Source: a virus. Taken from it: 21,101 bases of DNA. This document shows, one piece after another, positions 8,377-20,567 of the stretch. The notes beneath the pieces were generated by a model. It had not been told where the DNA came from, searched no databases, and saw only the letters and a program-made list of their open reading frames with translations. The stretch lies in the UHGV virus genome UHGV-1793583, one strand, 5' to 3'. Made by a program: the position numbers and the translations under genes. Numbering within the stretch: the first letter of the stretch is position 1; each line of letters opens with the position of its first letter.

Positions 8377-8409
8377 AATCTGACTCACAATCCCCCACAA
8401 GTTTTTCTA

Positions 8410-8439
8410 TTTTTCGCGTAGCAACGCGTAAACATGTAT
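8410..8439. promoter_or_regulatory. conserved 30-nt leader element TTTTTCGCGTAGCAACGCGTAAACATGTAT (copy A)
   Basis: 27 of 30 identical to copy at 20512-20541; both lie 15-30 nt upstream of an SD; CGCG-hexaloop-CGCG hairpin potential. Confidence 0.45.
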
Positions 8440-8454
8440 TCAGGAGTAAACATT

Positions 8455-15905: not shown

Positions 15906-16583
15906 ATGATTCATGTTCGAACAGGACAATTTGCGGCTGTGGTTGATGGCAGGAGGTATGTGTTCAATCCCTGCTTTGCTGCAATGGCTAAGATCGGCAG
16001 TGACAGGGAACTGGTCGAATACTTCGCAACTGTGCACGGTGGCAAATACCCACAGCGTTTGCCAACAGATCCAGACCTCCGCAATCGCATTATGGCGCGT
16101 TGTTATGGTGAACTGGTGCAAACGTCCATCCACATATTGAAATGTTGCTCAGAATGCGAAATAGGCCCGTTATTGGGCGAATGTAGCTTTACTCCTTCGG
16201 GTAAGTTGAGACTGAAACCTGGATTGATGCCCACCAGCGACGTCATCACACTAGCGCAACACTGCATGTTCCACGGTTTAATTGGTGACGGACCAGATGA
16301 AGACGCTGGCGAGAAACAGGATGGCGACTATAAACAGACGTTTGACATCCTTGAATATGTTTACTCCGCCGTTGCTCACCTGGGATTGTCTGAATCTGAA
16401 GCATGGGGCATGACAATGACCGGATACAGGGCCGCTGTACGCGCTAAAACGCCACCAGACGAAAGAAACGAGAAAGGTAAACCAAACGTTCATATAAATA
16501 AACGTGATTATGATGAGCAAATGGGAGCGGCTAAAAGGGTGCTGGAATTGATGAAAAAACGCGAGCAAGAAAAAGCCAGGTAG
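15906..16583 (+). CDS. putative tail assembly chaperone (225 aa)
   Basis: Between tail tube and tape measure genes; ATG 15906 with AAGGTGA 5 nt upstream; track start 15867 lies inside the terminator hairpin. Confidence 0.5.
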   Translation: MIHVRTGQFAAVVDGRRYVFNPCFAAMAKIGSDRELVEYFATVHGGKYPQRLPTDPDLRNRIMARCYGELVQTSIHILKCCSECEIGPLLGECSFTPSGKLRLKPGLMPTSDVITLAQHCMFHGLIGDGPDEDAGEKQDGDYKQTFDILEYVYSAVAHLGLSESEAWGMTMTGYRAAVRAKTPPDERNEKGKPNVHINKRDYDEQMGAAKRVLELMKKREQEKAR

Positions 16584-16591
16584 AACCTGGC
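16566..16591 (-). terminator. intrinsic terminator for minus-strand moron 1
   Basis: 7-bp stem GCCAGGT/ACCTGGC with 3-nt loop; on minus strand followed by TTTTTCTT; overlaps stop codon of plus-strand chaperone gene. Confidence 0.5.
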
Positions 16592-16626: not shown

Positions 16627-17043
16627 TTATCTGATCCTTACATTTTCAATTCTGCCGTTACCTAAATCAACGATAGCATGATTTTTTACACCCGCGCCGC
16701 CTTCGTTAGATATTCTTTCAGCAAATGCGGCTTTATCAGCGTTGCACTCGTTGGCTATTCTGTTTCTTATTTCATTGTTACCTTCGAATACGACACCTAC
16801 AGCAGCCTCCATCACAAGCCCATAATTAAACCATCTTGCATAAACTGGTTTACCTTCGAAATGCTTGTCAATTGCTTTATAAAAAACCTTGATGGCTTCG
16901 GGTTCCTTCTTGAAAATTTTATGGTATTCGGCAACGTTATTTGCTACTTCATCGCAGTTTATATTTATTACATCGTTTGCATTTGCGTTGAATGCCAAAC
17001 CAACCATTACCGCCATCATTGCCGCTCTAATTAACCGTTTCAT
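16627..17043 (-). CDS. secreted moron protein with Sec-type signal peptide (138 aa)
   Basis: Reverse strand inside forward tail operon; N-terminus MKRLIRAAMMAVMVGLAFNANA, no lipobox; GGGTGAG RBS; own promoter and terminator. Confidence 0.65.
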   Translation of the reverse strand: MKRLIRAAMMAVMVGLAFNANANDVININCDEVANNVAEYHKIFKKEPEAIKVFYKAIDKHFEGKPVYARWFNYGLVMEAAVGVVFEGNNEIRNRIANECNADKAAFAERISNEGGAGVKNHAIVDLGNGRIENVRIR

Positions 17044-17055
17044 AACTCACCCAGC

Positions 17056-17142
17056 TTAGTTTTTGTTTTTAAGTGCTTTCAGCATTTCCTCGATGAAGTC
17101 TGCATAACGCTCATGCTCGTTTGGTCGGCAGTAGTTTTTCAT
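17056..17142 (-). CDS. small upstream ORF (28 aa, MKNYCRPNEHERYADFIEEMLKALKNKN), not in track
   Basis: AAGAGGA 7 nt upstream of ATG; stop 13 nt before the secreted-protein ATG. Confidence 0.3.
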   Translation of the reverse strand: MKNYCRPNEHERYADFIEEMLKALKNKN

Positions 17143-17218
17143 TTTCTTATCCTCTTTTGCTTCCTCCGGTTCATCCGGCCTTCTGAATCCATTCACTCAA
17201 TCCCTTTCCTTTGACTTA

Positions 17219-17247
17219 CTTATACAAAATGTATTCGTTGAAGTGAA
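17219..17247 (-). promoter_or_regulatory. sigma70-like promoter for moron 1 (-35 TTCACT, 17-bp spacer, -10 TATAAG)
   Basis: -35 is reverse complement of 17242-17247, -10 of 17219-17224; -35 overlaps the GTGAAGCCATTTTGTA motif. Confidence 0.4.
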
Positions 17248-17299
17248 GCCATTTTGTATAGAATAGAGATCTAGATCACAATTTTCATGAGGTTAAATC

Positions 17300-19643: not shown

Positions 19644-19673
19644 AACCCCGGTACAATGCCGGGGTTATCTTTT
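19644..19673. terminator. bidirectional intrinsic terminator (AACCCCGG-loop-CCGGGGTT)
   Basis: 8-bp stem, 7-nt loop; T-rich on plus side (ATCTTTT) and on minus side (TAGTTTATTT); between TMP stop and minus-strand cassette. Confidence 0.55.
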
Positions 19674-19968
19674 AGTTATTCTCAAAACTTGTATATCCTC
19701 TCTCAATTTTCCCTCCATGTACACTTCTGGCAAATACCGCGTCAGTATACCTAAAAAAATGGACACGTATATGTATCCCCTTTACTATCCATATATTTTA
19801 GCACCCATGCCATGCGTTTTACGTTGCTTTTATTTGCCGGGTTTTTCATTTTATTTTCCTCCGCAAATCACAATCTTCCGTTTCTTGCTGTATAGCTGCG
19901 AGCAAACATCACCTGCCAGATGTTCCAGATCTCCATCCAGGTGAATTTATCGTCATCCATATTTCACC

Positions 19969-20223
19969 TCATTTATGTGCCCCTTTTACGCCACAGTGGC
20001 GGTTGTATTCCAGATGGTCAATAATTAACCACATCTTTAGATCTTCGCTGAATAACCGCCAATCGGGGTTGATGTCAAATTTATAACCGTAGCCATCGCG
20101 TAATTTTTTGGGGTTGGCCTCTTTTTTCAGGAAAGCGTTTAATAAGGCCTTGCCCTTTTTGATGATCCGGTCCTGTGCGTTTTTCTGTGCTTTCAGGTTT
20201 TTACCAATCGCCACCAATTTCAT
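19969..20223 (-). CDS. small basic protein of unknown function (84 aa)
   Basis: Reverse-strand ORF; ATG at 20223 preferred (GGGGTGGG RBS); Lys-rich; second gene of two-gene minus cassette. Confidence 0.5.
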   Translation of the reverse strand: MKLVAIGKNLKAQKNAQDRIIKKGKALLNAFLKKEANPKKLRDGYGYKFDINPDWRLFSEDLKMWLIIDHLEYNRHCGVKGAHK

Positions 20224-20241
20224 AACCCACCCCACAATCCA

Positions 20242-20397
20242 TTAGCTGACCACTTTCAGGAAGAAATCACGGTATTCATCTTCTTTTGCATTCATCATGA
20301 ATTGACCGTATTTGAATGCGTCATCGAAGCCTTTTACAATCGCCACTTCCACCTGTTCGAATGCGTTGTTCAGCATTACCACTACATAGCGTTTCAT
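20242..20397 (-). CDS. small acidic protein of unknown function (51 aa, MKRYVVVMLNNAFEQVEVAIVKGFDDAFKYGQFMMNAKEDEYRDFFLKVVS)
   Basis: ATG at 20397 with AGGAGGGG RBS; first gene of minus cassette; 18-nt gap to downstream basic-protein gene. Confidence 0.45.
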   Translation of the reverse strand: MKRYVVVMLNNAFEQVEVAIVKGFDDAFKYGQFMMNAKEDEYRDFFLKVVS

Positions 20398-20439
20398 GAT
20401 GCCCCTCCTTTGTTGGTACTGCTTTCTCTTCTTGCTTCC

Positions 20440-20468
20440 TATATACATCTTGTTACGTCCTGTGTGAA
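20440..20468 (-). promoter_or_regulatory. sigma70-like promoter for moron 2 (-35 TTCACA, 17-bp spacer, -10 TATATA)
   Basis: -35 is reverse complement of 20463-20468, -10 of 20440-20445; -35 overlaps the GTGAAGCCATTTTGTA motif. Confidence 0.45.
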
Positions 20469-20486
20469 GCCATTTTGTAAACTGGG

Positions 20487-20492
20487 TATAAT
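20487..20492 (+). promoter_or_regulatory. consensus -10 hexamer TATAAT without clear -35, possible plus-strand promoter for the gpM-like gene
   Basis: Perfect TATAAT 8 nt after the 16-bp motif; nearest -35 candidate TGTGAA is poor. Confidence 0.3.
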
Positions 20493-20511
20493 TCTTGTGA
20501 CGAAGTTCTAA

Positions 20512-20541
20512 TTTTTCGCGTAGAAGCGCGTAAAGATGTAT
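20512..20541. promoter_or_regulatory. conserved 30-nt leader element TTTTTCGCGTAGAAGCGCGTAAAGATGTAT (copy B)
   Basis: 27 of 30 identical to 8410-8439; 27 nt upstream of the gpM-like start. Confidence 0.45.
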
Positions 20542-20567
20542 GCAATATGTAACTTATAGGGGGAATC

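Follow-up and report, generated by a model that had tools for sequence, protein, structure and literature searches.

The DNA analysed here is a stretch of 21,101 nucleotides from the virus genome UHGV-1793583, which as a whole is referred to as the window, and the element under study is a 16-mer, GTGAAGCCATTTTGTA, that occurs twice among its tail genes. The window comes from a temperate siphovirus of the mEpimmI group, to which mEp021, mEp010 and relatives belong, and covers its late region; the best match is a prophage in E. coli WCHEC025970, with 96.9% identity. The mEpimmI phages are common temperate gut coliphages that were described in 2025 (PMC11893012), and apart from antitermination sites their promoters carry no annotation. 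The plus strand of the window carries lysis, head and tail genes, and the tail genes are broken by two short minus-strand units of low GC (guanine plus cytosine) content. The junctions concerned are termed J1 (upstream of the tape measure gene) and J2 (upstream of minor tail gene M), and a third, J3 (upstream of tail gene L), lies between genes M and L just past the end of the window.

Both units have the make-up of morons, each with its own predicted promoter and a terminator, placed between conserved genes, variable among relatives and atypical in composition, with a GC content of 0.38-0.43 vs 0.48-0.54 in the flanks (0.38-0.40 for the J1 cargo). In distant phages whose minor tail protein is 65-70% identical, the tape measure gene runs directly into the minor tail gene, which makes the units insertions of the moron kind. 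No family match was found for the J1 cargo in Pfam, PHROG or PADLOC, and for the function of the cargo there was no PHROG annotation and no match to a defence system. The features of the two cassettes are collected in Table 1.

Table 1. Features of the window discussed in the text (promoter elements, transcription starts and CRP-type sites are predictions; ORF, open reading frame; aa, amino acids)
Feature	Position	Strand	Remarks
J1 cassette	16627-17142	minus	between DUF6246 gene and tape measure gene
J1 cargo, 28-aa ORF	17142-17056	minus	
J1 cargo, 138-aa protein	17043-16627	minus	N-terminal signal-like sequence
Terminator-like hairpin, bidirectional	16575-16591	both	closes J1 cassette; annotated terminator in mEp010 and mEp021
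J1 16-mer copy	17243-17258	minus	TACAAAATGGC = 17258-17248, A-tract upstream box at about -46 to -36, then TTCAC
J1 -35, TTCACT	17242-17247	minus	TTCAC, TTTAC or TTCAT in relatives
J1 -10, TATAAG	17219-17224	minus	17-nt spacer, TG directly upstream; start near 17212
J1 imperfect inverted second motif copy, TATACAAAATGTATTC	17221-17236	plus	left arm of J1 repeat, over leftward -10 region
J1 -10-like TAGAAT	17259-17264	plus	TAAAAT in most relatives; with TTGAAG (17238-17243), 15-nt spacer, rank 23
J1 CRP-type palindrome	17265-17280		TGTGATCTAGATCTCT on minus strand (17280-17265); centre about -60.5 leftward, about +2 rightward
J2 cassette	19751-20397	minus	between tape measure gene and minor tail gene
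J2 cargo, 51-aa protein	20397-20242	minus	phrog_29810
J2 cargo, 88-aa ParE-like toxin-domain protein	20235-19969	minus	PF24732, E 8e-12
J2 cargo, 30-aa ORF and 32-aa ORF	19960-19868, 19849-19751	minus	
Terminator-like hairpin, bidirectional	19644-19666	both	closes J2 cassette, behind tape measure gene
J2 16-mer copy	20464-20479	minus	TACAAAATGGC = 20479-20469, then TTCAC; conserved in 26 distinct relatives
J2 -35, TTCACA	20463-20468	minus	
J2 -10, TATATA	20440-20445	minus	17-nt spacer, TG directly upstream; TATACA in some relatives
J2 -10-like TATAAT (consensus)	20487-20492	plus	17 nt after GTGAAG (20464-20469), rank 17 of 210,660
J2 CRP-type palindrome	20496-20511		TTAGAACTTCGTCACA on minus strand (20511-20496); centre about -70.5 leftward, about +5 rightward
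Third cassette of like design	1789-1850	plus	CGTGATCTACCTCGCA, 5 nt, TACGAAATGGC, ATTGTT, 17 nt (ending GCCATTTTG), TTATAT

The repeated 16-mer and its predicted promoter context

Both exact copies of the 16-mer that the earlier note had placed at the two moron promoters are present, and no further copy was found in the window at up to 3 mismatches. The note had also held that such a match is unlikely to arise by chance. This does not stand for the match alone, since an exact 16-nt direct repeat turns up in 6.6% of 500 dinucleotide shuffles (21.1 kb, same composition), so that identity by itself is suggestive and not decisive. It does stand for the placement, register and conservation of the copies, which are non-random because they lie in both divergent intergenic regions, share one register to TGTATA and are conserved in relatives that were chosen without regard to the motif. 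Across 596 Gb of genomes, a scan for the 16-mer returned scattered unrelated taxa in about the number expected by chance, and a scan of viral contigs returned the J1 and J2 families together with coding-region matches in unrelated phages.

Read on the minus strand, the 16-mer consists of TACAAAATGGC followed by TTCAC, the first five bases of a predicted -35 hexamer. The J1 and J2 regions align base for base through the 16-mer, a divergent stretch of 10 nt and then CAnnnTG-TATAnn; outside the 16-mer and TGTATA blocks they share no similarity, and the 10 nt that follow TTCACN are unrelated. Behind both -10 hexamers come a leader, a Shine-Dalgarno sequence and the first gene of the cassette, and at J2 the predicted start near 20433 is followed by AAGGAGG and an ATG (20397). 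Resemblance of the -35 to TTGACA is 4/6 for TTCACT and 5/6 for TTCACA, with TTGATC or TTGATA at J3 and TTGACT at the early promoter described below. The spacer is exactly 17 nt at J1, J2 and J3, at the early promoter and at the copy of the block at 1810 (within the third cassette of Table 1). This supports the earlier proposal of a shared cis-regulatory element overlapping the -35 of both predicted moron promoters.

The position of the upstream box is that of a proximal upstream (UP) subsite. If the -35 hexamer is numbered -35 to -30, the box occupies -46 to -36, with the A-run at -43 to -40; the proximal UP subsite has the consensus AAAAAARNR at -46 to -38 (PMC4132738). The TACAAAATG stretch matches 6/8 specified positions of this consensus, again with the A-run at -43 to -40. 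In many CRP-dependent promoters a UP-like sequence follows closely on the CRP site (PMC4132738). Other assignments were tried for the promoter elements and rejected. An extended -10 of the form TRTGn (consensus from PMC4132738) does not fit, as the TG lies one base too near the hexamer at J1, J2 and J3 and the alternative register loses A-11. None of sigma-54 -24/-12 elements, IHF, marbox, FNR, LexA or a sigma-S-type -10 fits when compared by eye with the respective consensus. Autoregulation of a toxin-antitoxin pair as the reason for the motif was likewise set aside, as an identical motif heads the unrelated cargo of J1.

The earlier note had further described an inverted-repeat structure. 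The partners ATACAAAATG (17222-17231) and CATTTTGTAT (17250-17259) are indeed perfectly inverted and 18 bp apart, and a repeat finder extends them to 16-nt arms at 17221-17236 and 17245-17260 with 14/16 complementary positions. As single-stranded DNA the J1 repeat folds far better than shuffled sequence (z-score about -5), whereas the equivalent stretch of J2 shows no unusual folding (z +0.5), and the inverted repeat therefore belongs to the first site only and is not a property of the motif. A hairpin or terminator was rejected as its explanation: the signal is strong at J1 and 1810 and absent at J2, and compensatory changes were unavailable. A search of the whole window against Rfam gave no match at E <= 1. 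At J1 and 1810 a weaker inverted copy of the box lies 27 bp off, over the TG-TATA region, and at J2, J3 and the early promoter the inverted partners are degenerate. The J1 repeat can be read as a by-product of back-to-back promoters, each of which would contribute CATTTTG-TATA on one side and TATACAAAATG on the other. Alternatively it can be read as a pair of protein sites, a reading that stays alive because the box is conserved above the -35 at J1 (0.034 vs 0.157 differences per site).

Conservation, reuse of the block and exchange of cargo

Relatives were gathered through the minor tail protein and not through the motif, giving 31 IMG/VR loci to which mEp021, mEp010 and WCHEC025970 were added; statistics for each junction are mean pairwise differences per site over 23-28 distinct sequences. 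The motif was sought at the equivalent junctions of these relatives, as the earlier note had proposed, and is conserved at J1 and J2, with a like layout at J3. On the minus strand the design at J1 is TGTGATCTnnGTCTCT - 6 nt - TACAAAATGGC - TT(C/T)ACT - 17 nt - TATAA(A/G), at J2 it is TGAGATCTTCATCACA - 16 nt - TACAAAATGGC - TTCACA - 17 nt - TATA(T/C)A, and at J3 TGTGATCTGCGTCACG - 8 nt - TACCAAAA(T/C)GG(A) - TTGATC - 17 nt - TATATT. Differences per site amount to 0.03-0.13 in the upstream box, 0.03-0.16 in the -35 hexamer, 0.18-0.41 in the first 10 nt of the spacer, 0.03-0.12 in its last 7 nt, 0-0.09 in the -10 hexamer and 0.16-0.34 in the 20 nt after it. Constraint is thus of the promoter type, with both hexamers held and the first 10 nt of the spacer free. 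At J1 the upstream 11 nt are nearly invariant among 28 distinct relatives, in which CATTTTG+TATAAx is conserved as well.

Of 30 genomes, 10 have the exact 16-mer at J1, 20 have it at J2 and 7 have it at both junctions, and the TGTATA register is invariant in all 30. Within one genome the J1 and J2 copies match at 11-16/16 positions, with distant relatives drifting to 11-13/16. The motif is therefore a degenerate consensus, about TACAAWATGKMTTYAC, and not a strict 16-bp word, and the identical copies of the window stand at its well-preserved end.

The same block also stands at other promoters. When both strands of mEp021 were ranked with a motif-blind sigma-70 matrix, the candidate at +11938 (TTGACT-17-TATATT) came first and that at -43981 (TTGATA-17-TATATT), which is J3, came second; the former is directly preceded by GTATACAAAATGGA and the latter by TCATACCAAAACGG, with the shared form ATAC(C)AAAA(T/C)GG. 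The +11938 promoter lies between the terminator of the repressor gene and nutR1/gp17 (for gene positions see PMC11893012), and its location upstream of nutR1/gp17 makes it an early promoter, which host polymerase must use unaided. In the closest relative of the window the early promoter reads TACAAAATGTG-TTGACT-17-TATATT. The third cassette of like design in the window lies upstream of an ORF at 1869-2180 and has a second, inverted motif copy at 1834-1845, with the same 27-bp offset as at J1. In the window, TACAAAATGG with <=1 mismatch is present 8 times vs 2.1 expected, a number reached in 0/100 shuffles. In mEp021, CAAAATGG is present 12 times vs 4.0 expected.

The 1789-1850 cassette also contains a near-perfect 15-bp palindrome (fold z -4.8) and lies in the first gap of appreciable size downstream of the Q-like antiterminator gene that the closest relative carries; genes toward the lysis cassette may be transcribed from it. 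A fourth divergent junction, J4, is found at mEp021 52894-53029, upstream of the gene for exclusion lipoprotein gp81. Its minus strand reads TGTGATCTATGTTGCA - 9 nt - TATACAAAATG - TATATT, so that the box lies directly against the -10, and its CRP-type site is centred at about -40.5, a class II-like position (class II activation by CRP takes place from -41.5). Copies of the box together with near-consensus CRP-type palindromes, TGTGATCGCAATCACG and TGTGATCCACATCACG, also lie at 16510-16580 and 20078-20160 in the early-right operon of mEp021, with an equivalent in the relative L146. The same operon has a convergent pair of boxes about 74 bp apart, beside the nutR2 region as placed by PMC11893012.

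The cargo behind these promoters is exchangeable. At least four types of cargo are found behind one J1 promoter among the relatives, and other cargos at J2. Where the cargo of relatives differs, their similarity stops about 20-25 nt past the J1 -10, and at J2 and J3 it reaches as far as the start codon, so that conserved sequence gives way to exchangeable sequence within the leader or at the start codon, 45-80 bp away from the motif. In the window, no motif copy was found at the terminator end of either cassette. The promoter cassettes are conserved backbone, and it is the cargo that moves.

In E. coli MS 21-1 (L147 5978-6101) and in IMG/VR contig L077, J3 is without cargo genes and keeps everything as far as the former start codon, namely the CRP-type site, box, -35, -10 and leader; transcription leftward from such a junction would enter gene M in antisense. 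The J2 cargo of the window (19969-20397) resembles a toxin-antitoxin pair, with the 51-aa protein followed by the ParE-like protein, and in two relatives (L088 and L089) the ParE-like gene seems to lie directly behind the J2 promoter, without the small gene. The J2 spacer of the same two relatives resembles a J1 spacer (ACTCCATnTTGTATA), a hint of exchange between paralogous cassettes. A 21-nt repeat, 90% identical, lies at 17134-17154 and 19841-19861 and reads GAGGAnAAnAAAATGAAAAAC on the minus strand, where it forms the ribosome-binding site and start of two tiny ORFs, one per cassette (28 aa and 32 aa), both of which start with MKN.

CRP-type palindromes, probable divergent promoters and alternative readings

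All three junctions also carry a palindrome of the CRP type. Compared with the core of the 22-bp CRP site, TGTGA-N6-TCACA, the two palindromes of the window match at 8/10 positions each and have one perfect half each, the degenerate halves being TCTCT and TTAGA; most relatives carry TGAGATCTTCATCACA at J2, and the form in relatives at J3 is TGTGATCTGCGTCACG. At all three junctions the half-sites are conserved (0-0.14 differences per site) and the central 6 bp are variable (0.29-0.40), the TGTGA half of J1 being invariant over a variable centre in 28 relatives, and the spacing from palindrome to box is constant within each junction. This is the signature that a dimeric factor with CRP specificity would leave. 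On the assumption of a transcription start 7 nt past the -10, the palindromes are centred at -60.5 (J1), -70.5 (J2), -62.5/-63.5 (J3) and -59.5 (1810), and peaks of activation have been reported near 61, 71, 82 and 93 (PMC4132738). CRP-type sites with <=1 mismatch give 14 strand hits in mEp021 vs 3.6 expected, and none was found at its early promoter. An operator for a CI-type repressor is unlikely because no such site occurs at that promoter, and this candidate was rejected; the immunity region shows other repeats. Host CRP would be the most economical candidate for the palindrome. A literature search found no paper tying CRP to phage morons.

The J1 site holds two GATC (Dam) sites at 17268-17277. 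At J1, J3 and J4 the conserved half reads TGTGATC. Adenine methyltransferases are encoded in the phage family, and it is conceivable that binding at the J1 site is sensitive to methylation.

The junctions probably also fire rightward. The plus-strand -10-like hexamers pointed out in the earlier note are both present, TAGAAT at J1 and the consensus TATAAT at J2, although their distance from the motif is 0 nt in the first case and 7 nt in the second. GTGAAG-17-TATAAT probably forms a rightward promoter that reads toward the minor tail gene, and TTGAAG-15-TAGAAT may form one toward the tape measure gene. The J2 ATTATA (TATAAT on the plus strand) is an invariant island amid variable positions in 26 relatives, and A at position 2 and T at position 6 are kept in the TA(A/G)AAT of J1 and the TGG-TATGAT of J3. 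Rightward promoters toward the tail genes are thus likely to be real, and each junction is probably a compact pair of divergent promoters in which the CRP-type site lies across the rightward start (+2 to +6). The register of the 16-mer to the rightward -10 differs, however, GTGAAG being 10 nt away at J1 and 17 nt at J2, whereas its register to the leftward elements is identical at J1, J2, J3, 1810 and the early promoter. Since a common register exists only with the leftward elements, the primary role of the 16-mer is assigned to the leftward promoters.

A 34-nt plus-strand element, ATTTTTCGCGTAGnAnCGCGTAAAnATGTATnCA, at 8409-8442 and 20511-20544 (88% identical) lies in the leaders of the portal and minor tail genes. 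mEp021 has both copies as well, and the J2 copy does not vary among 26 relatives. The element has a small CGCG hairpin behind a T-run, with ordinary folding energy (z about 0), and might be a protein-binding or boxB-like element of the late transcript.

With a probability that we put at roughly 60%, the 16-mer is best explained as the shared core, an A-rich box plus the -35, of paralogous and probably CRP-assisted sigma-70 promoters that head the accessory slots of the mEpimmI phages and are likely to be paired with rightward promoters. Two sister promoters of the sigma-70 type would fire leftward into both minus-strand morons. The A-tract box TACAAAATGGC, at the position of a proximal UP subsite, would dock the polymerase alpha subunit's C-terminal domain beside region 4 of sigma, and TG-TATAAG or TG-TATATA, 17 nt past the -35, would serve as the -10, to be followed by leader, ribosome-binding site, cassette genes and terminator. 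Host CRP, bound at the palindrome about 60 bp (J1) or 70 bp (J2) upstream in a class I position, would bring the alpha domain to the A-tract box. The promoter block would be reused at J3, at the mEp021 early promoter and at 1789-1850, and each junction would act as a divergent promoter pair with a CRP-type site over the rightward start. The register, conservation pattern, repetition and exchangeable cargo are read directly from the sequences, from which we infer the transcription starts, the alpha-domain contact, the binding of CRP and the direction of regulation.

Several observations weigh against this explanation. The leftward -10 hexamers TATAAG and TATATA have A-11 without the highly conserved T-7, which no other register restores, whereas the TATATT of J3 and of the early promoter carries both. 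The built-in scan for consensus promoters reported neither leftward promoter in the window, and in the sigma-70 matrix they rank 201 (J1) and 259 (J2) of 210,660 candidates, mainly because they are without T at -7, and are outranked by the plus-strand candidates of the same junctions. These ranks come from a matrix whose hexamer frequencies were entered by hand after published compilations, combined with a spacing term. The CRP-type site of J3 is 2-3 bp out of phase with those of J1 and J2. The J1 box TATACAAAATG varies less than the -35 beside it, which is unusual for a plain UP-like sequence and could reflect a specific protein or an overlapping rightward -10. Some motif copies in mEp021 (20078, 20152 and 16552) have no good -35/-10 behind them. 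Lastly, the sole paper on the mEpimmI group (PMC11893012) is silent on moron promoters.

One alternative holds that the motif mainly serves rightward promoters that restart transcription of the tail genes, with GTGAAG as the -35 and CCATTTTG as the spacer to TAGAAT, TATAAT or TAAACT. The better matrix scores of the plus-strand candidates, the invariant TATAAT of J2 and the positions kept at J1 and J3 speak for it, as do the occurrence of CCATTTTG followed by TATACT or TAAACT upstream of plus-strand genes of mEp021 (20142-20160 and 16562-16578) and the block kept at the cargo-less J3 of E. coli MS 21-1. Against it, the unequal registers mean that J1 needs another -35 with a 15-nt spacer, the mirror -35 of J1 (TTCGTT) is not conserved in relatives, and at the mEp021 early promoter and J3 the motif lies upstream of a -35 that faces the opposite way. 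As a replacement for the explanation preferred here it is unlikely, and it probably holds beside it.

It is similarly doubtful that TATACAAAATGG is the site of a sequence-specific protein, encoded by phage or host, which co-regulates early, late and moron promoters in a network of operators or stoperators. The conservation of the box above the -35 at J1, the inverted pairs with equal 27-bp offset at J1 and 1810/1845, the excess of TACAAAATGG and CAAAATGG and the copies without a convincing -35/-10 (mEp021 20078 and 16552) are what such a protein might leave. The site is asymmetric, though, and the pairs, 27 bp or about 2.6 helical turns apart, face opposite sides of the helix; at J2, J3 and the early promoter there is a single good copy each; the early promoter must act before any phage protein exists; the J1 and J2 copies differ at 3-5/16 positions in distant family members; and no candidate protein was identified. 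The dedicated operator suggested in the earlier note is not supported for the motif itself, which behaves as a promoter core would, also at the early promoter, the strongest predicted for the phage, where only host RNA polymerase is available, and whose copies drift in distant relatives. Nor does the motif look like a repressor operator or stoperator, being non-palindromic and lying upstream of the -35 at the early promoter, and the repeats of the immunity region, which lie from the repressor gene to the divergent regulator gene, are unlike the box and of the TTGCATCA type. An operator would better fit the adjacent CRP-type palindrome, which the earlier note had not mentioned. No less tentative is a two-way switch, in which one palindrome would serve both the rightward start beneath it and, at class I distance, the leftward promoter; host cyclic AMP (cAMP)-CRP, or a factor of like specificity, would steer polymerase to either the cargo or the tail genes and the TATACAAAATGG box would be the site of a dedicated factor. 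If true, it would amount to a phage-wide promoter code linking lysogenic-conversion and structural genes to the carbon status of the host.

The other suggestion of the earlier note, which takes the motif for a recombination joint, or for a scar left where the morons entered the tail operon, is largely refuted by the positions of the breakpoints and has very little left to recommend it. Cargo behind the promoters is swapped among relatives, the J2 spacer of L088 and L089 is like a J1 spacer, and conserved cassettes could provide homology for such swaps. In relatives with differing cargo, however, the boundary lies downstream of the promoter, at a distance from the motif; the motif is present on one side of each cassette only; the cargo-less J3 retains the full block; and the motif stands at the early promoter and at 1810, sites without an insertion. 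Finally, a chance repeat in AT-rich intergenic DNA, for which the shuffles and the scattered genomic matches might be cited, is scarcely credible given the shared position, register and partner elements, the conservation across about 30 genomes and the related copies at further promoters.

Significance and comparison with known systems

The element belongs to a known class, forms no new kind and should not surprise a specialist; what it offers is an aid to annotation and a regulatory hypothesis that can be tested cleanly. The design (CRP-type site, TACAAAATGG box, -35, 17-nt spacer and TG-TATA) offers a handle for annotating transcription units in mEpimmI prophages and helps to predict accessory genes expressed from the prophage, such as the ParE-like toxin pair, secreted proteins and exclusion lipoproteins, whose expression can then be tested against the cAMP status of the host. 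It also shows the accessory slots of this group to be fixed parts of the backbone whose cargo can be exchanged, a point of relevance to the gain and loss of morons.

The morons of lambdoid and HK97-like phages, reportedly described by Hendrix, Juhala and co-workers, are the nearest parallel. As there, a unit of promoter, gene and terminator lies amid morphogenesis genes, with low GC, variable cargo and an empty site in distant phages. Unlike them, promoter and terminator here are part of the backbone and only the cargo changes, and one promoter design is found at three or four slots of the tail cluster, always against the late operon. Mycobacteriophage stoperators are short asymmetric motifs repeated between genes in early and late regions, including the early promoter. 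The motif described here is likewise short, asymmetric and repeated intergenically, also at the early promoter, but its copies are few, their orientation is not uniformly tied to transcription, and the repeats of the immunity region are different.

The box resembles a proximal UP subsite in abutting the -35, in its A-run at -43 to -40 and in its presence at the strongest predicted promoters of the phage, and departs from it in matching at 6/8 positions, in having invariant flanks (TA-C...TGG) outside the consensus and in being conserved more tightly than expected. The order of elements, the predicted centres at about -60.5 and -70.5 and the weak core recall class I CRP promoters with a UP-like sequence, of the lac P1 type (Zhou et al. 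2014, PMC4132738). Unlike those promoters, the junctions have starts and CRP binding that are predicted only, one degenerate half-site each, -10 hexamers without T-7 and a J3 site 2-3 bp out of phase. The Pc/Pint promoters of the Vibrio cholerae integron (PMC3948777), conserved and regulated by CRP, offer an analogy of logic only, the setting here being a phage tail operon with neither integrase nor attI/attC sites; what the two have in common is a conserved promoter block in front of variable cargo, a divergent pair of promoters and cAMP-CRP, which is predicted in the case of the phage.

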